64,000 nucleotides of DNA, from assembly GCA_034722245.1 (NCBI GenBank), contig JAYENT010000091.1, positions 51,492-115,491 on the forward strand, in the 5' to 3' direction. The stretch is from Chloroflexota bacterium. Lineage in GTDB: Bacteria > Chloroflexota > Anaerolineae > UBA1429. The notes beneath the pieces were generated by a model. The model made no database searches. It saw only the letters and a list, made by a program, of their open reading frames with translations, and was not told the origin of the DNA. Position 1 is the first letter of the stretch; every line of letters starts with the position of its first letter. Both the position numbers and the translations under genes were made by a program. This document shows, one piece after another, positions 14,171 through 58,363 of the stretch.

Positions 14171-17100
14171 TTATCCTTCAGCGCCTGGTTCCGATATGGC
14201 TTCCCCAGAATCACCGCCTTGGGCCATAAGAGCTGTATCCCCAGCACGGACTGTTACGTCGGACTCGGAAAACGTATCGGCACCGAATCCTCCCAAGAAA
14301 TCGGCATTCAAGGGTTCCAGAACGGGCTCTTCTTCGCGCTCTGCCTCTTCGGCCGCTTCTTCCTCTTCGGGCCGGAACCCCGTGCCCACAGGTATGAGCT
14401 TGCCGATCAGCACATTCTCCTTCAAGCCGTGCAACGGATCGACTTTGCCCTCAACAGCCGCATTGGCCAATACCTTGATAGTGTGCTGGAAAGAGGCGGC
14501 GGAGAGGAAACTCTCTGTGCTCAATGCCCCCTTCGTTATACCCAGGATCACGGGCTCTGCTGTGGCAGGTTCACCGCCCTCTTCGATGATCTCAGTATTC
14601 AACTCCTCAAACTCGACCCTATCAACAAGCTCGCCAGGGAGCAGCTCGCTATCGCCACTGGAGGTCACCTCTACATAACGCAACATCTGGCGCACAACCA
14701 CCTCGATGTGTTTGTCATGGATGGCCACACCCTGAGACCTGTAGACCTTCTGGACCTCGGTGATCATATAGTCACGGAGCGCCTCAATGCCGAGAATGGA
14801 AAGAATCTGATGCGGGTTCTTTGATCCCTCCGTGATCATCTCTCCTGCCTCGATCATATCGCCATCCTGCACGCGCAATCGCGCACCTGCGCGTATATGA
14901 TACGTGCGCTCTTCCTTCTCCTCATGGAGAATCACGATATGACCATCCTCCATGCTTACCCGCCCAGAAACCTCCGCGAGCACGTCTTCTTGTCCCTTCC
15001 GGCTGCCCAGCAAGTCGCCTTTTTCTACAGAATCCCCGTCCTCGACCTTGATCGAGTAGTTGCCAGGGACATCGTGTTCAACGCGCTGAACATCGGTAGA
15101 GACAACCCTGACCGTCCGCTTGCCGTCCCTGCTTTCGATGGAAACACGGCCATCTATCTCCGAGATGACCGCCTGCCCCTGTGGATCACGGGCCTCAAAG
15201 AGCTCTTCCACACGAGGCAGACCCTGCGTGATATCGCTGGCTCCGGCCACACCGCCAGTGTGGAAAGTACGCAACGTAAGCTGGGTGCCGGGCTCACCGA
15301 TCGATTGAGCAGCGATGACGCCCACGGCTACCCCTTTATCAACGACGGAGCCCCGCGCTAAATCCCGCCCATAGCACTTACGACAAATGCCATGGCGGAG
15401 CGAGCAGGTCAAAGGCGAACGTACGTGGATGGAATCGATGGCAGATTCTTCCAGCATCTGCGCCATCTCCTCATCGATCTCCTCATCCACATCGACCAAT
15501 ATCTCTCCCGTATCCGGATCGACAACAGGAGTGGCAACAAAGCGCCCGGCAATACGCTCAGCAAAAGGCTCACCTATCTCTTCGCTGCCCTCTCTCGTTA
15601 TCCAGATACCCTGACTCGTGCCGCAATCGTCCTCTGTGATAATCACGCCCTGTGCCACGTCCACAAGCCGGCGCGTCAGGTATCCGGCATCCGCCGTCCG
15701 CAGCGCCGTATCGGCCAATCCCTTACGGGCTCCGCTCGTGGAGATGAAATACTCCAACGAGTTCAGCCCTTCGCGGAAATTGGAGCGGATGGGCAGGTCG
15801 ATGATGCGCCCTGACGGATCAGCCATAAGGCCGCGCATGCCTGCTAACTGCCCAATGGGCTGTAACCCGCCCTTGCTGGCACCAGAATCCACCATGATCC
15901 CCAAGGCACTGTGAGGGTCCAGGGAACGCGCGACGGCTCTTGTCACTCTCTCTGTGGCATCAGACCACACGTCAATCGTTCGCGCATATCGCTCGTCCTC
16001 TGTGATAAGACCGCGGCGATACTGACGCTCCACTTCGGAGATAGTCTCCTCCGCTTCCGCGAGAACCTGAGCCTTCTCTTCCGGCACGTGAATATCATCG
16101 ATGGCCATGGTCACACCAGAGAGCATGGCATAGTCGAATCCCATATCTTTCAGCCTGTCGGTTATCTTGGCCGTATGCTCCGGCCCAGTGACCTTATAGG
16201 CCCTTGCGGTCAACTCTCTCATAGCGCCTTTATCCATCGCCCTATTCACAAAGCGCAGCTCAGGAGGCAGATAGCTATTGAACAAGACGCGACCCACAGT
16301 GGTATCTAGGACCTCTGTTTCATCGCTGTCTTCTGGCGTGTAGGCAAACTTGATTTTGGCATGTACATGGACAAAGCCTAACTCGTAGGCCATCTGGACC
16401 TCTTCAAAGGACGAAAACGCCTTGCCCTCTCCCTTAACGCCCTCCTCCTCCATAGTCAAGTAATAGGAACCCAGCACCATGTCCTTAGTGGGTGCCACCA
16501 GCGGTTCTCCATTGGCCGGTTTGAGCTGATTTCTCGTAGAAAGCATGATCTCACGGCATTCTTTGACGGCAGCTTCTGACAAAGGCACGTGAACGGCCAT
16601 CTGGTCACCATCAAAGTCCGCGTTGAAAGCAGCACAAACCAGTGGGTGCAATTGAATGGCATTCCCTTCAACCAAAACGGGCTCGAAGGCCTGGATACCC
16701 AGGCGGTGCAGCGTGGGCGCGCGATTCAGGAGAACAGGTCGCGTCTTGATGACCTCCTCCAGCACCTCCCACACTTCTGGCGTCTCGCGCTCTATCAGGC
16801 GTTTCGCCCCCTTGACGTTGATCGCATGGGCGTATTCCACCAGCTTCTGCATCACAAAGGGGCGGAAAAGCTCCAGCGCCATACGCCTCGGAAGCCCACA
16901 CTCGTGCATCTCAAGATCGGGTCCCACCACGATGACGGAACGGCCCGAATAGTCCACCCGCTTCCCCAACAGATTCCGCCGGAAACGCCCCTGTTTCCCC
17001 TTGAGCATATCCGACAGCGACTTGAGTTGCCGCCGGCCATGCAAGGATACTGCTTTGCCCTGTCGACTGTTATCAATGAGGGAATCCACAGCCTCCTGCA

Positions 17101-18496
17101 GCATCCGCTTCTCATTGCGCACGATAACTTCGGGGGCCTGTAGCTCCAAGAGGTGCTTCAAGCGGTTATTGCGGTTGATCACGCGACGATAGAGGTCGTT
17201 CAGATCACTCGTCGCAAACCGCCCGCCGTCAAGCTGCACCATAGGGCGCAATGCAGGAGGTATCACGGGCAACACCTGTAGAATCATCCACTCTGGTCGG
17301 TTGTTCCCCTCAATCAGGGCACGCACGAACCGGAGACGCTTGATTGCCTTCTTCTTCCTTTGCTTCGAGGTCTCTGTCCTGATCTGTTCCCTTAGCTGCT
17401 CCACGAGTTCCTCAAGATTCATATTGGAGATGATCTCCAACACCGCCTCGGCGCCCATCCCCGCCTCGAACACACGGCCCCATTTGGCTTGAAGCTCTCG
17501 GTATTGGGTCTCATTGAGGCGCTGCTTGACCTTGATATTCACCAGCTCCTCTTTGTCTTTTTCGAAGCGTTCGCGAACTGCCTCGCTCTTTTCAAACAGC
17601 TCCTCCTGTAATCTCTCTTTATATTCTTCGAGCTTATGAGCAGCCGCCTCGCGCTCATGCTGCAAGGGCTCAAGCAACCTTTCCTGCTCCAGCGAAAACT
17701 TTTCCTCAAGCCGTGTGAGCTCTTCCTGCACAATCTCGTTGAATTCGCCAATATCCTCTCGTTGAATCGTCTCGCCCTCTTTCACCACCGTCGCCCCCGT
17801 GGGACTGAAGACAAGAGTCTCCGGCGCAGCCTCACCACGATACTGATCCAGCACCTCACGCAGACGGGTCGCCTCGTCCATCACTGCTTCCGTCGCCTCC
17901 TCAAGACGCTGCTCAATATCCTCCCTGATCTCTGCCTCTTTCTCGTCCGCAGCGTCGCGAATCTGGCCCAGCTGAGCCTCCATGATGCTGAGCTCGTCCT
18001 GCTTTTCCTCTTCGAGTCGAGCAACTTCATCGTTCATCTCATCCTCCCGATGATGGAGTGCTCGCTCGCGCGCTTTCTCATCAACGGAGGTGATGATATA
18101 CTTCGCAAAATAGAGAACGCGATCCAGCTTCCTTCGCGATATGTTCAGCAGCAAAGCCAAATAGCTTGGAGAACGCCGGGTGTACCAGATATGAGCCACA
18201 GGAGCGGCCAACTCAATATGGCCCATGCGCTCGCGACGAACCCGTGAATGGGTGACCTCTACACCACACTTGTCGCAGATAATGCCCCTATAACGAACGC
18301 CTTTGTATTTGCCACAGGCACACTGCCAATCCTTAGTGGGACCGAATATTGCTTCGCAGAATAGGCCGTCCTTCTCGGGACGAAGTCGCCGATAGTTGAT
18401 AGTCTCTGGTTCCGTCACCTCCCCATAGGACCAAGAACGAATCTGCTCGGGCGACGCCAAACTGAGTCTCAAGCTCTTAATCTCGTTGAGTTCCAA
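14171..18496 (-). CDS. rpoC: DNA-directed RNA polymerase subunit beta' with a large lineage-specific insertion
   Basis: 1441 aa; Zn-finger CACGKYKG...CDKCGVEV, catalytic [16 protein letters not shown], and a coiled-coil insertion. The start codon is TTG at 18496 (read as ttggaactcaacgag), with RBS AGGAGGG 8 nt upstream. Confidence 0.95.
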
Positions 18497-18652
18497 GGTG
18501 CCCTCCTAATTCACTGAGGCGTAAGATGAGAGAGTCTAGTGTCTCAATCCGCAGAAGCGCAAAAAATCTCGGTTCCTGTCCTCCAGTCTGACGAACGGAA
18601 GATCTTCAAACCGAGACCAACCCCCGATATGAAACACTTGCAATAAGCATTT

Positions 18653-18772
18653 GGATCCAATGAAAAAAGGTTTTTCATTGGACAAAGGATACCCTATACT
18701 GTGATTGTGCTCTGCACGACCACAATATATGCCCCACGCTTCTTTCTGGCTCCCCCTTTTTCCGGGGCAACC
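18653..18772 (-). ncRNA. Copy A of a roughly 120-nt hairpin-rich conserved element, in the rpoC 5' leader
   Basis: An 11-bp perfect hairpin CCAATGAAAAA-agg-TTTTTCATTGG (18657-18681), an imperfect 11-bp hairpin (18700-18724), a conserved ATATATGYCCC block and a GGCYnCCC...GGGnAGCC hairpin; homologous to 56747-56865. Confidence 0.5.
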
Positions 18773-18844
18773 AACATTTGAGGAATAACGTGCCACTCTG
18801 TACACAGTACACACTAGGCACGAGATATCCAAAATACAAAACAT

Positions 18845-18873: not shown

Positions 18874-19003
18874 ATCACCGAAAGCGCAGGGTGTTGAAAA
18901 AGTGATCCTGAAATTGACGGCGGGCTGAGAGTTTGCCCTGAGGGTAGGAATTTGAGATAGGGTCTGGCTAGAGAGTTCACTGAATGCATGAGGGAGCATA
19001 GAT

Positions 19004-19589
19004 ATGTCGCGCAAGCCTCATTTCCAGGACACCGGCAAAGGCTCGTTCTTCGGGGACCTGGTGTACGATCGCATTATCCCGGAGGACCACTTTCTCGTGG
19101 CTCTGAATAATCTCTTCGACTGGGACGCCTTGAGCGGCCGCTTGCTCGAGGCCTATCGAGGCGAGGGGACGCTAGGACGGCCGCCCTACAATCCAGTACA
19201 GATGTTCAAGATGCTGTTCATCTCTTATCTTTATGGCGTTTCAGAGCGTGCGGTGGAGGAACTGGTCAACTCCCCCCTGGTACTGAAGTGGTTCATAGGA
19301 CTGGCCGTGGATGAACCGGCCCCAGACCATAGTTCCTTAACGGTATTCAAAAACCGTTACCTGAAACCAGGCAAAGGGCGAGCTTTTGATGGCCTGCTTC
19401 GACGAGATCATCCAGGAAGCTGTAGCACAGGGGGTGGAACTGGGCGATCTACAGGTCTTGGACAGCGTGCACACGGAAGCCAACGTCAACGCGGAGAAGG
19501 ACCAGAAGCGGCACTGGTCAACAAAGGGCGACGGGCAGAGAGGCTCAAGCCTGTTTATACCAGTCTGCCCTGGGGGTAGTGGCCGTTAG
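19004..19589 (+). mobile_element. Degenerate IS5/IS1182-family transposase remnant (frameshifted, truncated)
   Basis: N-terminal DUF772-like region (DRIIPEDHFLVALNNLFDWD...PPYNPVQMFKMLFISYLYG). The sequence continues in another frame (19386..19589: ...FDEIIQEAVAQGVELGDLQVLDSVHTEANVN) and then stops. No DDE catalytic region or intact terminal repeats were seen. A 9-bp hairpin ATGCCCGCT/AGCGGGCAT at 19640-19674 lies just beyond. Confidence 0.6.
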
Positions 19590-19840
19590 ACCAAGGTGAC
19601 AGGCCCAGGGCGAGCTATTGGGCCAGAAGGGAAGAGCCCATGCCCGCTCAGCGCGAAGGAAGGCAAGCGGGCATAGGGCCTCACCCTGCACAAACGCCCC
19701 GCTCAACCGCAAACTGCCTCCAGACAGGGGCCGTTCAAACCGAGCATTGAAACCTAAGTCCCGTATCGCCCAGAAAACGTCGCGGAATGCACTTGGTCAT
19801 AAACATCCTCCTACGGTCAAATGGACCGAAAGCCCGAAAC

Positions 19841-32876: not shown

Positions 32877-33560
32877 TTAGAGCAAACGCCGCAACCCAAA
32901 GACGATGCCCAGGAGAACAAAGATGGCCCCCATAGTCGCTCCACCAAAGACAAAGGCCTGTACCCAACTTTTGGGGTCCAGCGGCAGCTCCCTGCCCTGA
33001 TCCGGACGGCTCAGGGTAGGCGTCGGCGTAGGCATAGACAAAGCCTCCGTGGGAGCGATAATGTACAACGTAGCCGTCGCCTCTGGCGTAGCTTCTCTCA
33101 CTTCTGTGGGTGTTGGCTCCAAAGTAGGTGTGACGGTCGGTGTAGGCGTCGGCGTGGGCCGCGTGTTCACGATGGCAAGTTGCCGCACGTAGAACTCTTC
33201 CCAATTGCCATCCTGTTTGACGGCCTGCAGCCTGAGCGTGTACACGCCATCGGGAAGTTTCGTGGTGTCCCAGACGGCGAGTTGCCCATTGATGACCGGC
33301 TGGTCGTGCAATTCGCCGATGACTGCCCACTCGCTTGGGCTCGGCCCCACGCCAAACTCCACCTTGTAGAACTGGAAGCTGGGAACGGAGGCGGAACCCA
33401 CTATCGCCACCATCCCGCGCAGCTCGGCATTCATCTCAGGAGAGGTGATCTCCACCTTCATCTGCTGCTGTGACGGTTGGGCGTGAATGGCGGACGGAGC
33501 AAGGCCAGAAAGTAAAAAGAGGAGCATTAACACAAGCGCTATACGTCTAGGCATACACAT
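32877..33560 (-). CDS. Secreted or anchored protein: signal peptide, beta-sandwich-like domain, Pro/Thr-rich linker, C-terminal hydrophobic anchor
   Basis: Signal peptide MPRRIALVLMLLFLLSGLAPSAIHA; linker TRPTPTPTPTVTPTLEPTPTE; C-terminus GGATMGAIFVLLGIVFGLRRLL. Confidence 0.55.
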   Translation of the reverse strand: MCMPRRIALVLMLLFLLSGLAPSAIHAQPSQQQMKVEITSPEMNAELRGMVAIVGSASVPSFQFYKVEFGVGPSPSEWAVIGELHDQPVINGQLAVWDTTKLPDGVYTLRLQAVKQDGNWEEFYVRQLAIVNTRPTPTPTPTVTPTLEPTPTEVREATPEATATLYIIAPTEALSMPTPTPTLSRPDQGRELPLDPKSWVQAFVFGGATMGAIFVLLGIVFGLRRLL

Positions 33561-33901
33561 CCCTTGATGAACAAAACCTCACAGGGGAAGTGTATCACAG
33601 TATGGCCCCTGGGGCAAGCGCTATCATAGTCACGACCTGGCTCTCTTGGCCCATTTCCAACATAGAACGAAATCCCCTATGCAACTTCCAGTGTTTTGCA
33701 GTGCAAGCCCACCGACACTCTGTGGCTGCGTGCTTGCAGATTCCATGTCCCACACGATATATGGCCCATTTTCAGCTCGCGAATACTACAGAGCGTGGTG
33801 TTGAAAACGGGCCTGGGTCACTGCACGCGTGAAAGGTGTGAAGATTTGCTTCTTTCGCCGGAGAATGATATATTATAGTCAAAGATTTGTTCCCTTTGCA
33901 A

Positions 33902-40205: not shown

Positions 40206-41150
40206 ATGCAAATCATCGGAAACCTTTTGGCCTATGAACCATCCCACAGCGCCGTCCTGACCATCGGTTCCTTCGACGGTATCCATCGGGGGCATCAACA
40301 CCTGCTGACCAAGCTCGTACAACGCGCCAAAGAGACCCAGCGGTTGAGCGCTGTCCTCACGTTTCATCCCCATCCTGAGGCAGTCGTGCACCCCGAAAAG
40401 CGCCCCCAATATCTTAGCAGCCCCCAAGAGCGCACAGAGATCTTCGAGGATCTTTGTCTCGATCTCTTATTCTTGATACCTTTCAGCCAAGAGCTGGCCC
40501 AAACTTCGGCACAGGATCTACTAACCATGCTCCACGACCGCCTACGGATGCGAGAGTTCTGGGTAGGACCCGACTTTGCCATGGGACGAGATCGTGAAGG
40601 TGATATTGCCACCTTGCGCCATCTCTCCACAGAGATAGGCTATGAGTTGCGTGTTCTGAGCCCCTTGTGCGAGGGGGGAAGGCCCATCAGCAGCACCAGG
40701 ATCCGCATGCTGCTTTCGGAGGGACGGGTGCGGGATGCGGCGGCACTCCTGGGACGCCCCTACACAATCTCTGGGCGCGTGGTCAAGGGCGCCCAGAGGG
40801 GACGCTCCTTGGGCTTCCGCACCGCTAACCTGGAGGTCGAGCCCCAAAGAGCTCTGCCCAGAAGGGGTGTCTATGCCGCCTGGGCTCTCCTGCACAGGGA
40901 GCGGCAGGAATGCGTGGTCAATGTGGGGGCGCGCCCTACCTTTGACGACCAGGATTTGCTGGTTGAGGCTCATCTCCTCGACTATGAAGGCGATCTCTAC
41001 GGGAAGGAACTCTGTATTGAGTTCGTGCGGCGGCTACGGGCAGAGAAACGGTTCTCTGACGCGGGCGCCTTGATCGACCAGCTTCGTCAGGACGTAGCGG
41101 TCGCCCGTGAGATCCTCGGCGAAAGACAGAAAAGGGCCGTGACTCCGTGA
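40206..41150 (+). CDS. ribF: Bifunctional riboflavin kinase/FAD synthetase
   Basis: GSFDGIHRGHQ nucleotidyltransferase motif plus a C-terminal riboflavin kinase domain (GRPYTISGRVVKGAQRGRSLGFRTANL). Confidence 0.9.
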   Translation: MQIIGNLLAYEPSHSAVLTIGSFDGIHRGHQHLLTKLVQRAKETQRLSAVLTFHPHPEAVVHPEKRPQYLSSPQERTEIFEDLCLDLLFLIPFSQELAQTSAQDLLTMLHDRLRMREFWVGPDFAMGRDREGDIATLRHLSTEIGYELRVLSPLCEGGRPISSTRIRMLLSEGRVRDAAALLGRPYTISGRVVKGAQRGRSLGFRTANLEVEPQRALPRRGVYAAWALLHRERQECVVNVGARPTFDDQDLLVEAHLLDYEGDLYGKELCIEFVRRLRAEKRFSDAGALIDQLRQDVAVAREILGERQKRAVTP

Positions 41151-41326
41151 CATCCTGTGAGCTGCCCTCTAGCATCCGTACGCTATGGCTGCTTCACAAA
41201 AAGGATAGCCAGAAGAGAGAAACGGGGGAAAATATCGCAGTTGTGCTTTACACAGCCGCGATATATAGTACCCCCTACTCATATATGACATGCCAGAGAG
41301 CGCCCGCGAAGGAAGGAGGGATCGAA

Positions 41327-42772
41327 ATGCTCAGTAAAGACGTGCTGATCCAAATCGCTCCACGTCTTTATGAAATCCCCACAAGCTACAGAGATGATAT
41401 GCGCGTTCCCGCCAGGCTCTATGCGGACGAGGAGATCGTAGAAGCGGCCCTGGGGGACGGCTCCATAGAGCAACTTATCAACACATCGACTCTCCCCGGC
41501 GTGGTCAAGTACACTCTGGCCATGCCCGACATTCATCAGGGGTATGGTTTCCCCATTGGAGGGGTGGCAGCCACTGCTCTGCCAGATGGCGTAATTTCTC
41601 CAGGCGGCGTGGGCTACGACATCAACTGCGGGGTGCGCCTGCTGACCAGCACCATTGAGGTCGGGGCCGCCCGTCCCCATATGGTCCAGCTTATGGACAG
41701 CCTCGTTGAGAGCATACCCACGGGGGTCGGGGCGAGGGGCACCTTTCGCCTTTCAAAGGGTGAACTCTACCTGCTCCTGGAACAGGGCTCGAGTTGGGTG
41801 GTGGGCATGGGCTATGGCCGGCAAGAAGACCTGGAGCATACCGAGGATGAGGGCCGCATGGAGGCGGCCAATATAGAAGCCCTCAGCCGCCGCGCCATAG
41901 ATCGGGGACACAGACAGGTGGGCACCCTGGGCGCGGGTAACCACTTTGTTCAGGTCGACGAGATCGCTCAGATATACGATGAGGAAGCGGCCGAGGCGCT
42001 GAATCTGGTGAAAGGCCAGGTGTGCGTCTGGATTCATGCCGGCTCTCGCGGTTTGGGCCACCAGGTATGCATCGATGCCATCAAGATGGTACAGGAGGCC
42101 AAGTACAACATAGACACCCCTGATCCAGAGTTGGCCTCCATCCCCTTTTCGTCGCAGGAGGGCCAAAAGTATTTCCAAGCCATGTCCTGTGCCGCAAACT
42201 TTGCCTGGGCCAACCGCCAAGCCATCACCCATCTGATACGACGCAGCTTTGAGGAGGTCTTTAGCGGACACGTCAGGAGCTACGATTTGCGCGTGGCCTA
42301 CGATGTCTGTCATAATATAGCCAATATTGAGGAGCACGAGGTGGCGGGCGAGCCGACAAGGATGTGCGTGCATCGCAAGGGGGCCACGAGGGCCTTGGGG
42401 CCCGGCCATAGGGCGATAGCCGAGACGTACCGCGCCTTCGGGCAGCCGGTCTTTATTCCGGGCGACATGGAGAGGGGATCATACATCCTGCTTGCCACAG
42501 AAAAGGCGACGAAAGAGGCCTTTGGTAGTATTTGCCATGGGGCCGGGCGTCTCATAAGTCGCTCAAAGGCACGCGAAACGGTTTCTGGAGAGGATCTGCA
42601 CCAGCATCTGGAGAACAGTGGCATCATCGTGCGCTCCGGCAACTTGTCCGGGCTGGCCGAGGAAGCGCCACAAGCTCACAAAAATGTGCACCATATCGTG
42701 GATGTGGTGGAAGACGCTGGGCTGTGCCGCAGGGTGGCGCGCACGGTGCCGTTGGGCGTCATCAAAGGCTAA
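41327..42772 (+). CDS. rtcB: RNA-splicing ligase RtcB (3'-phosphate/5'-OH RNA ligase)
   Basis: [13 protein letters not shown]...[11 protein letters not shown]...[13 protein letters not shown]...HNIA metal/GMP site pattern. Start at MLSKDV (41327) has RBS GAAGGAGGG; the ORF-track N-terminal extension to 41147 is unlikely. Confidence 0.85.
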
Positions 42773-56503: not shown

Positions 56504-56517
56504 CCCGCACGTAACAA

Positions 56518-56589
56518 CTCCTCGGGCTGGACTCGAACCAACAACCAATCGGTTAACAGCCGACCGCTCTACCATTGAGCTACCGAGGA
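56518..56589 (-). tRNA. tRNA-Asn (anticodon GTT), CCA not encoded
   Basis: Reverse complement TCCTCGGTAGCTCAATGGTAGAGCGGTCGGCTGTTAACCGATTGGTTGTTGGTTCGAGTCCAGCCCGAGGAG: acceptor stem TCCTCGG/CCGAGGA, anticodon loop CTGTTAA. Confidence 0.85.
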
Positions 56590-56601
56590 ATATATAAAAA
56601 A

Positions 56602-56630: not shown

Positions 56631-56746
56631 ATCGTCCGCACTCAAACCAGGCAATTCAGGTTAAGGTTGAAGGAACCTTAACCTGGCACATTCCACCACT
56701 AATTCGTCCGCAGCAAGGGCTGATTTCGCCCGTAAAAAGCAAAAAC

Positions 56747-56865
56747 GGATCCACTGAAAGAAGGTCTTTCAGTGGATGGAGGACACTATATATTGTGGTT
56801 GTGCTTCGCACAACCACAATATATGTCCCATATTTTCTTTTGGCTACCCTTTTTTCAGGGCAGCC
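56747..56865 (-). ncRNA. Copy B of the hairpin-rich conserved element; lies in the rpoD 3' UTR, with its terminal hairpin plus a U-run acting as a likely rpoD terminator
   Basis: An 11-bp perfect hairpin CCACTGAAAGA-agg-TCTTTCAGTGG (56751-56775) followed on the reverse strand by ATCCGTTTTTGCTTTTT; a 13-bp perfect hairpin ATTGTGGTTGTGC-ttc-GCACAACCACAAT (56792-56820); and GGCTACCC-N8-GGGCAGCC. Homologous to 18653-18772. Confidence 0.5.
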
Positions 56866-57091
56866 AAAAACGCGAGTGAGACAGACTCTTACCACCAGAA
56901 CCTACCGCGCAGTCAAATATAAGGCTTACCTCAAGTCCTCCGCGCTCACCGGAGACATTTGGGAAATCTCGTCCAGATGCACCTCAACGCCCACGCGGGA
57001 TCTGGAGAAACTGCTCGGCATCCTATACCCGTCCTCATCTTCGAGATAGCGACAGCATTGCGCAGTACCTCGTTGTCTCCATCTTGGACGC

Positions 57092-58363
57092 TTACTGGAT
57101 CAGATAATCCCGCAACTGCCGGCTTTTTGTCAGATGACGCAGTTTATGTAGTGCCTTGGTTTCTATCTGTCGCACCCGCTCCCGTGTTAGACCAATGCTC
57201 TCCCCCACCTCTTCCAGCGTATGGGGCTCACCCCCACCAAGCCCAAACCGAAGGTTAAGCACGCGCTGTTCCCGCTCGGTCAGCGAAGCCAGACTCTCCC
57301 GAATCTGCTCGCGCAGCAGTCCCTTGTTCGTCTCCTCCACCGGCCCGTCCACCGAGTCATCCGCGATAAAGTCCATGAGGGCATTATCCTCATCATTCCC
57401 GACGGGCGTCTCCAAAGACATGGGCTCCTGGGCAAAACGCAAGACCTGACGTATCTTTTCCACCGCCTGCTTCATGTGCCTACGTACATCGGCAGGCGCT
57501 TTCGCATCATCCGCCTGACATTGCTTCCACACCCGCTTATCCTCATCCGAAAGATAATTCGAGGCCAGGGCCACCTCCTCAAGCGTGGGATCCCGCCCCA
57601 AATCCTGCTCAATCTCTCGCATGGTACGCATCAGATGGCTGATGGATTCGATCATATGCACGGGAATACGAATGGTACGCGCCTGATCCGCTATGGCACG
57701 GCTGATGGCCTGCTTTATCCACCATGTGGCATAGGTGCTGAACTTATAGCCCCTCCGATAGTCGAACCTTTCGACGGCGCTCAACAGACCAAGATTCCCC
57801 TCCTGAATGAGATCGAGAAAGGACATGCCGCGCCCCATGTAGTCTTTGGCAATGCTTACCACCAGCCTCAGGTTGGCCTCAGCCAGACGGCGCCTGGCGA
57901 TCTCGCCCTGCATCACCTTGAGATCGTATACCTGCTTCTGTTGAGGAGAGAGCATTTCTTCTGCTAACTCCTCCAGCTTCTCTTGGGCTTCCGCGCCCGC
58001 CTCCATGGCCTTGGCGAGACGAATCTCATCCTCCGCACTGAGTAGATCCACACGGCCTATTTCACGGAGATACATACTCACACTGTCATTGGTCACACGC
58101 AGGGGCTGAGAACGCGTCGACCGGCCCGTGTGAGGACTCGTCTCCTCCCGAGGTCCCTCGACTTCCTCCCCAGCGCTCACCACGGTGATATCCATCTCCC
58201 TTAGCGCACTCACCAAAGCGTCGAATTCCTTATCGACGTCAACATTCCCATCCTGGGAGATTATTCCCAGGACATCCTCGTCAGTGACATACTTCTCACG
58301 AATGCCCTTGGCGAGTAAGGCATCAATTTTATCGCTCTCCAAGTTGGATCTCGTAGCATCCAT
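57092..58363 (-). CDS. rpoD: RNA polymerase primary sigma factor (sigma-70 family)
   Basis: 423 aa with regions 1.2 through 4: [22 protein letters not shown], the rpoD box [16 protein letters not shown], and a region 4.2 HTH. Confidence 0.93.

Follow-up and report, generated by a model that had tools for sequence, protein, structure and literature searches.

The window, as we call the whole 64-kb stretch of DNA analyzed here (64,000 nucleotides), carries rpoC and, after dnaG, the primary sigma factor gene rpoD, as well as a tRNA-Asn gene. The initial annotation had drawn attention to a hairpin-rich element of about 120 nt that occurs twice in this setting, with unrelated flanks. A gap-free alignment of positions 18653–18772 (copy A) and 56747–56865 (copy B) bears this out. 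The two copies align over ~120 nt at ~78–79% identity (78.5% over 121 columns), the homology begins at GGATCC and ends at GCARCC, and the flanks bear no mutual resemblance. An 18-mer conserved between the copies occurs exactly twice in the window, against 0.06 occurrences expected, and the 64 kb contain no other long direct repeat besides the A/B pair (repeat family D1, ~78%). The gene setting proposed earlier (rpoC, rpoD, and tRNA-Asn) holds as well, as do both promoters (TTGACA-17-TAAACT for rpoC and the consensus promoter of tRNA-Asn) and the common orientation of the two copies relative to the RNA-polymerase genes: rpoC, rpoD, and both copies all lie on the minus strand. Judged from the position of the rpoC promoter (Table 1), copy A would fall inside the rpoC transcript. 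The element measures 119–122 nt, has a G+C content of 42–47% (~44%), and is without coding capacity, as the open reading frames that overlap the copies lie on different strands and none is common to the copies.

Table 1. Genes, element copies, and associated features of the 64-kb window
Feature	Position	Strand	Remarks
rpoC	14171–18496	-	context only, outside the element
Copy A target-site duplication, first arm, CATTT (+) / AAATG (-)	18648–18652		empty sites of relatives
Copy A	18653–18774	-	122 nt, minus strand TTGGTTGCCCC...CATTGGATCC, within rpoC 5′ leader; covariance model 116 bits
Copy A hairpin 1	18657–18681	-	outer arm is terminal inverted repeat
Copy A central hairpin 2	18695–18729	-	folding and inverted-repeat search
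Copy A hairpin 3	18748–18772	-	outer arm is other terminal inverted repeat
Copy A target-site duplication, second arm, CATTT (+)	18775–18779		alignment with relatives
rpoC promoter, TTGACA-17-TAAACT	18873–18845	-	kept in relatives
IS1182-family transposase N-terminal remnant (DUF772 fragment)	19004–19579	+	neighbor of copy A
Empty copy-D site, promoter and short 5′ UTR of hypothetical gene	33552–33618	-	D present in L018, L019–L021
Copy C, degenerate third copy	41187–~41300 (to 41303)	+	covariance models R1 36 bits, R2 76 bits
tRNA-Asn	56517–56590	-	context
tRNA-Asn promoter, TTGACA-17-TATACT	56630–56602	-	promoter pattern match
Copy B target-site duplication, first arm, AAAAAC (+)	56741–56746		
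Copy B	56747–56865	-	119–121 nt, between second-sigma-gene remnant and tRNA-Asn promoter; covariance model 141 bits
Copy B hairpin 1	56747–56779	-	with target-derived GUUUUU run fits terminator pattern: 13 pairs, tail CCGTTTTTGC
Copy B central hairpin 2	56788–56824	-	16–17 perfect pairs
Copy B hairpin 3	56842–56865	-	folding
Copy B target-site duplication, second arm, AAAAAC (+)	56866–56871		
Second sigma-70 gene remnant, 31 codons (MPSSFSRSRVGVEVHLDEISQMSPVSAEDLR, then stop)	56926–57021	-	nucleotide alignment; gene intact in relatives
rpoD, primary sigma factor (sigma-70)	57092–58363	-	after dnaG; context only

Copies A and B each fold as three consecutive hairpins. For copy A, the folding energy is -49.8 to -54.2 kcal/mol on the minus strand versus -37.9 to -38.3 kcal/mol on the plus strand (z = -5.5 for the minus strand), and for copy B it is -71.9 to -72.2 kcal/mol versus -64.8 to -65.7 kcal/mol (z = -13.0, again for the minus strand). 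In both copies, folding is better on the minus strand, on which rpoC and rpoD are also encoded. In hairpin 1, copy A has CCAATGAAAAA/TTTTTCATTGG where copy B has CCACTGAAAGA/TCTTTCAGTGG; this amounts to two compensated positions and agrees with the stem-preserving substitutions that had been noted between the copies. The stem of the second hairpin in B is perfect, as had been stated, but it comprises 16–17 pairs rather than 13. Covariation across the family points in the same direction. In an alignment of eight sequences of the family, 86% of the pair cells hold standard pairs, compared with 41–50% in slid controls; the stems are conserved by double substitutions, with 19 changes on both sides of a pair versus 3–12 in the controls; and none of 500 shuffles reaches the observed covariation score. 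The stem covariation across the family is genuine. A search of Rfam 15 yields no family match for the element, in agreement with the earlier impression that it belongs to no described RNA family. At gathering threshold, the same search of the window returns two tRNAs only, and permissive Rfam searches of the A and B regions return only noise.

The rpoC locus of close relatives reveals how copy A came to lie where it does. In four relatives (L014–L017), rpoC is 88–90% identical to that of the window, and upstream of the gene, homology spans the interval between the -35 box and the start codon, with the promoter and the ~215-nt leader kept. The sole exception in this alignment is a block of 122 nt that is present in the window only. 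The leader of the window reads CCTC-AAATG-(TTGGTTGC...GGATCC)-AAATG-CTTATTG, and the empty sites of the relatives read CCTCAAATG followed by TTTAT, or CCTCAAAT followed by TCTAT (CCTCAAATG and YTTAT in summary). The covariance model likewise finds no match in the four rpoC loci. Since the 122-nt block is restricted to the window and AAATG stands on both sides of it, copy A represents a precise insertion of 122 nt into a linker of the conserved rpoC leader, where it duplicated its target. If the ends are instead drawn as GG...CC, the duplication becomes 7 bp long with one mismatch. One Logan contig begins at the IS junction and agrees fully with the window across copy A.

The leader itself deserves a description of its own. 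Excluding the insertion (18648–18774), the rpoC 5′ leader (window 18497–18838, minus strand) and its promoter are kept almost base for base in the four relatives, while the four-fold synonymous sites of rpoC in the same genomes are merely 52–55% identical. It contains an invariant stem, GTGCC/GGCAC, with a freely varying loop (18790–18821), a long hairpin followed by U6 (18561–18618), and a CUCUCU:AGGAGG (anti-Shine–Dalgarno) pairing that would occlude the ribosome-binding site. Rfam holds no match to this leader. It is a candidate for an undescribed attenuator or autoregulatory leader, and it looks like a better regulatory candidate than the element inserted in it.

Copy B had been assigned to a plain rpoD 3′ UTR, and this assignment does not stand. 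Copy B begins 227 nt past the rpoD stop codon and follows, at a distance of ~60 nt, the stop codon of a gene remnant. In the relatives, a second sigma-70 gene (intact, 336 aa) lies between rpoD and tRNA-Asn. The remnant in the window was revealed by nucleotide alignment; tblastn gave no report of it. As just 31 codons remain of a gene that is intact in the relatives, copy B sits in a deletion scar. With the covariance model, no copy was found in the rpoD loci of the relatives (L008–L012), including the regions downstream of rpoD. In another strain of the same species, a Logan contig (four differences in 230 nt) ends 28–30 nt into copy B, which is typical of assembly breaks at repeats and hints at repetition. 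Between copy B and the tRNA-Asn promoter, the window also carries a perfect 12-bp hairpin, CAGGTTAAGGTT-CCTTC-AACCTTAACCTG (56657–56685), which is absent from the equivalent spacer of the relatives and has no second copy in the sequence searched.

The last hairpin of copy B had been read as a terminator on account of its U-tract. A G+C-containing stem directly followed by a U-run is indeed found at hairpin 1 of B, but neither copy A nor the L002 copy described below shows this pattern. The U-tract after copy B stems from the duplicated target (GTTTTT) and lies outside the element; that the run belongs to the target explains why the terminator pattern is lacking in A and L002. The pattern match suggests that the last hairpin of B together with the target-derived U-run probably ends read-through from rpoD.

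Further copies occur in other genomes and in the window itself. An exact-pattern scan of 185,579 species representatives (one genome per species) finds the core in only two other Anaerolineae MAGs. One of these, L002, holds a full copy (506–626) that is 94% identical to B, with a lactonase gene on one side and an AlaX-like gene on the other. In the other, L001, the copy precedes a gene for an aldo/keto reductase, and a nested insertion of 102 nt breaks the central hairpin of this copy. The nested insertion (L001 6432–6533), whose inverted ends (CCCTAAGTGAC / CCCTGAATGAC) are imperfect, lies between direct repeats of 8–9 bp, (T)GCACAACC. It probably represents another MITE unrelated to the first, and no further copy of it turned up in the loci searched. 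A covariance model (R1) was built from the four copies A, B, L001, and L002, followed by a broader model (R2). Both models score a degenerate third copy in the window, copy C, in the gap between the stop codon of ribF at 41150 and the start codon of rtcB at 41327. Copy C has lost hairpin 1, and its hairpin 2 (41232–41264) is kept via two compensated pairs. The ribF–rtcB gap measures 176 nt in the window versus 15–65 nt in relatives, showing that copy C is lineage-specific.

A diverged copy, D, is found in the relatives L018 and L019–L021, where it occupies the 5′ UTR of a hypothetical gene divergent from nusA. At the corresponding site, the window has the same promoter directly followed by a short UTR, without D. 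Copies A, B, and C are thus found only in the lineage of the window, and D only in relatives; differences in presence and absence that run in both directions are as expected of a mobile element. Apart from A, B, C, D, L001, and L002, nothing was detected by R1 with filters off on the window or by R2 on 293 kb of loci. Exact-pattern scans of JGI metagenome contigs returned chance coding matches only (L004 and L005), scans of viral contigs returned chance matches or none, and blastn of copy B against plasmids and phages gave no match.

The three-hairpin subfamily is thereby represented by six independent insertions, three of them in the 64-kb window, and is joined by two related elements, E and F, discussed below. 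Four of the six insertions adjoin unrelated genes (aldo/keto reductase, AlaX-like/lactonase, ribF/rtcB, and the hypothetical gene). Only copy B and the L002 copy form a near-identical pair. Their 94% identity contrasts with host genomes that are merely 55–59% identical at four-fold degenerate sites, and a similarity so far beyond the divergence of the hosts is too high for vertical descent and speaks for recent spread. The sequences suggest either recent horizontal spread of the element or a mis-binned L002 contig in its MAG. The initial annotation had held that many near-identical copies in unrelated intergenic contexts, with target-site duplications, would mark the element as a MITE. The unrelated contexts and the duplications are there; many near-identical copies were not found, with six insertions and a single pair at 94%.

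The ends of the element point the same way. Its terminal inverted repeats are imperfect and 18 nt long, with the consensus GGMTSYMCTGRAARAAGG; in copy B, GGATCCACTGAAAGAAGG and GGCTGCCCTGAAAAAAGG match at 14 of 18 positions. Within the three-hairpin subfamily, each of the two terminal hairpins has one of these repeats as its outer arm. For the comparison of flanks, the limits of the element on the transcribed strand were set at TTGG...GGAYCC. The repeats that flank A (aaatg/aaatg) and the L002 copy (aatta/aatta) are then exact and in register, which has a random frequency of ~0.001, and the flank of copy B, gtttt(t), fits with 1 nt of slack in the T-run (random frequency ~0.004 with slack). 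The L001 copy shows no clear target duplication. Overall, the duplications are A/T-rich and 5–7 bp long, the length depending on where the ends are drawn. We rejected a strict 5-bp duplication, as 5, 6, or 7 bp fit when the ends are redrawn.

Elements E and F have the same termini as the three-hairpin element, but their cores are unrelated to it, and each folds as one long end-paired hairpin. Element E (L008/L010 3515–3666) is 152 nt long and flanked by AACTAC; element F (L001 1933–2070) is 138 nt long and flanked by TTTTTT. Both elements in L001 carry a lineage-specific GACT variant of the left terminus. Common termini around differing cores are what would be expected if one transposase mobilizes several non-autonomous derivatives. 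No autonomous IS with matching termini was found in the ~430 kb of sequence searched. An IS remnant close to copy A had already been noticed in the initial annotation, and it is there: a truncated IS1182-family element (18880–19840), of which about the first 120 of 488 transposase-model positions remain. In its place, relatives show thioredoxin-side synteny upstream of the rpoC promoter. Immediately before the rpoC -35 box, the window and the relatives cease to be homologous, and it is at this point that a Logan contig of the same strain breaks off. No link to the element was found; the IS1182 ends are not convincingly similar to it. As a partner, this truncated remnant, with its probable left end at ~18880 and ends unlike the termini of the element, was rejected.

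Taken together, these observations make it very likely that the ~120-nt element is a MITE-like, non-autonomous transposable element family of uncultured Anaerolineae/Anaerolineales. It is short and has no transposase gene, it has terminal inverted repeats and target-site duplications, and its presence and absence differ between genomes at non-orthologous sites. That the element moves like a MITE was one of the candidates raised at the outset, and the precise insertion, the duplications, the termini, and the unrelated contexts all favor it. A transposase acting in trans would recognize the termini and insert the element into A/T-rich intergenic targets, duplicating 5–7 bp. The genome of the window acquired A, B, and C after splitting from its nearest sampled relatives, with A entering the linker of the rpoC leader, B the scar of the deleted sigma gene between rpoD and tRNA-Asn, and C the ribF–rtcB gap. 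Copies A and B would then be passively co-transcribed, A from the conserved rpoC promoter, and A would add three stable hairpins to the rpoC 5′ UTR. Stem conservation belongs to the mobile family, as it does in Bacillus bcr1, and is not evidence for an RNA-polymerase-specific regulator, and the link between the element and the RNA-polymerase genes is coincidental.

One reading, which we regard as unlikely, is that the element is an exapted mobile RNA module that spreads as a MITE and whose transcribed hairpins are then kept by RNA-level selection. The module would serve as a 5′ UTR stabilizer, an RNase processing site, a protein-binding site, or a terminator, and D, perhaps also A and B, may be functional. 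The strand preference in folding is consistent with this reading. The transcribed strand folds better not only in A and B but also in D19 (-49.7 versus -28.4 for the opposite strand) and D18 (-39.4 versus -25.0), and on the transcribed strand G·U pairs outnumber A·C pairs, 57 versus 21 overall and 12 versus 0 in D19. However, D18 (9 to 6) and copy C (4 to 5, and with the opposite strand folding better) are without this wobble asymmetry, the count is biased because the structure was defined on the transcribed strand, and an excess of G·U would equally arise if transcription biased the sense strand toward C-to-T changes. On the basis of these sequence comparisons, the wobble asymmetry is suggestive: it hints at RNA-level constraint beyond mobility but is not conclusive. 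All four copies with informative orientation (A, B, C, and D) are co-directional with local transcription, although four of four corresponds to p ~0.06. The 5′ UTR in which copy D lies consists of little else, and hairpin 2 of D is kept between two lineages, with one compensated pair, despite drift to 65.5% identity; that divergence is nevertheless about neutral when set against 64–72% at four-fold sites. Finally, the genome of the window manages without D, as do the relatives without A, B, and C. More doubtful still is an extension of the exaptation reading, by which sense insertions of a mobile structured-RNA module are kept by RNA selection and rewire the mRNA stability or processing of essential genes in Anaerolineae, for example through the rpoC leader; the G·U excess, the preserved hairpin 2 of D, and the uniform sense orientation would then be marks of such selection.

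The three conserved hairpins might alternatively be recognition sites for hairpin-dependent mobilization of single-stranded DNA, in the manner of REP/REPIN sequences with a RAYT transposase or of IS200/IS605-like elements. Covariation that preserves stems over sequence and the slight strand asymmetry would fit such a mechanism. Yet such systems make no target-site duplications, and the element has them. Its termini are, moreover, inverted repeats that recur in E and F, both of which form a single long hairpin, and an unsystematic look at the window revealed no Y1 transposase. We therefore regard single-strand mobilization as highly improbable.

It is scarcely credible, too, that the copies are those of an independently transcribed small RNA gene. 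A weak promoter-like match on the minus strand of the element, TAGCCA-17-TATATT, and the terminator-like end of copy B could be cited for it. We rejected this internal promoter, as its -10 box lies within the 5′ arm of the conserved hairpin 2, and a transcript starting from there would lose that hairpin. In addition, the U-run comes from the target and is lacking in A and L002, Rfam offers no match, and copy A is embedded in a longer leader whose transcription starts farther upstream, at a conserved promoter.

Finally, the candidate that had seemed most inviting in the initial annotation, a cis-regulatory RNA (an attenuator or autoregulatory site) shared by RNA-polymerase subunit genes in the rpoC leader and the rpoD 3′ UTR, can practically be discarded. 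In its favor, both copies adjoin RNA-polymerase genes in a common orientation, fold strongly, and are probably transcribed. But target duplications mark the limits of the element, four relatives lack it in their conserved rpoC leaders, and relatives also lack it downstream of rpoD; elsewhere it adjoins unrelated genes and is restricted to no single functional class, copy B actually stands behind a pseudogene remnant, and the truly conserved structures of the rpoC leader lie outside the element. The empty orthologous sites refute a shared RNA-polymerase regulator.

The MITE-like reading removes a tempting false lead, as structured look-alikes beside RNA-polymerase genes turn out to be a coincidence of transposition. 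It adds a MITE family with at least three subfamilies that have common termini, apparently undescribed in the literature as far as we found, in the uncultured Anaerolineae, a group almost without mobile-element annotation. It also indicates that the leader of an essential gene, rpoC, tolerates a structured insertion of 122 nt in a variable linker. For annotation pipelines, the lesson is that genuine stem covariation can belong to a mobile repeat and not to a regulatory RNA.

Among known repeats, REP/BIME and REPIN sequences resemble the element in being intergenic and palindromic. Such sequences are often transcribed at the 3′ ends of genes and can stabilize mRNA or terminate transcription. 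REPs are, however, 20–40 bp long and G+C-rich, with GTAG or CGTC heads, RAYT Y1 transposases, and no target duplication, and the element, with its 120 nt, ~44% G+C, inverted termini, and target duplications, does not fall among the REP/REPIN sequences. Correia/NEMIS in Neisseria, RUP in Streptococcus, and ERIC/IRU in enterobacteria match the element as intergenic repeats of 100–160 bp with terminal inverted repeats and a target-site duplication. Classical bacterial MITEs of this kind are co-transcribed into mRNAs and occasionally have effects as terminators or processing sites (also PMC3184786). They usually form one long end-paired hairpin, as E and F do, whereas the three-hairpin subfamily has self-folding ends and a central palindrome. 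Correia and RUP duplicate TA, and the element duplicates 5–7 bp; a partner IS is known for several classical MITEs, but none was found for this element.

A further counterpart is bcr1, a repeat reportedly treated by Okstad in 2004 and Klevan in 2007. In the Bacillus cereus group, bcr1 is a non-coding intergenic sequence of ~155 bp that has 5-bp direct repeats and is transcribed with neighboring genes; its stem-loops are kept by compensatory changes, and its distribution differs between related strains (Delihas 2011 review, PMC3184786). The element is likewise short and intergenic, with direct repeats, an unconserved distribution, and stem-loops that show compensatory changes, and it is predicted to be transcribed. 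The two have no sequence similarity, however, and belong to different phyla, and bcr1 combines a fixed TTTAT target with two stem-loops, whereas the element combines three hairpins with variable, A/T-rich targets of 5–7 bp.
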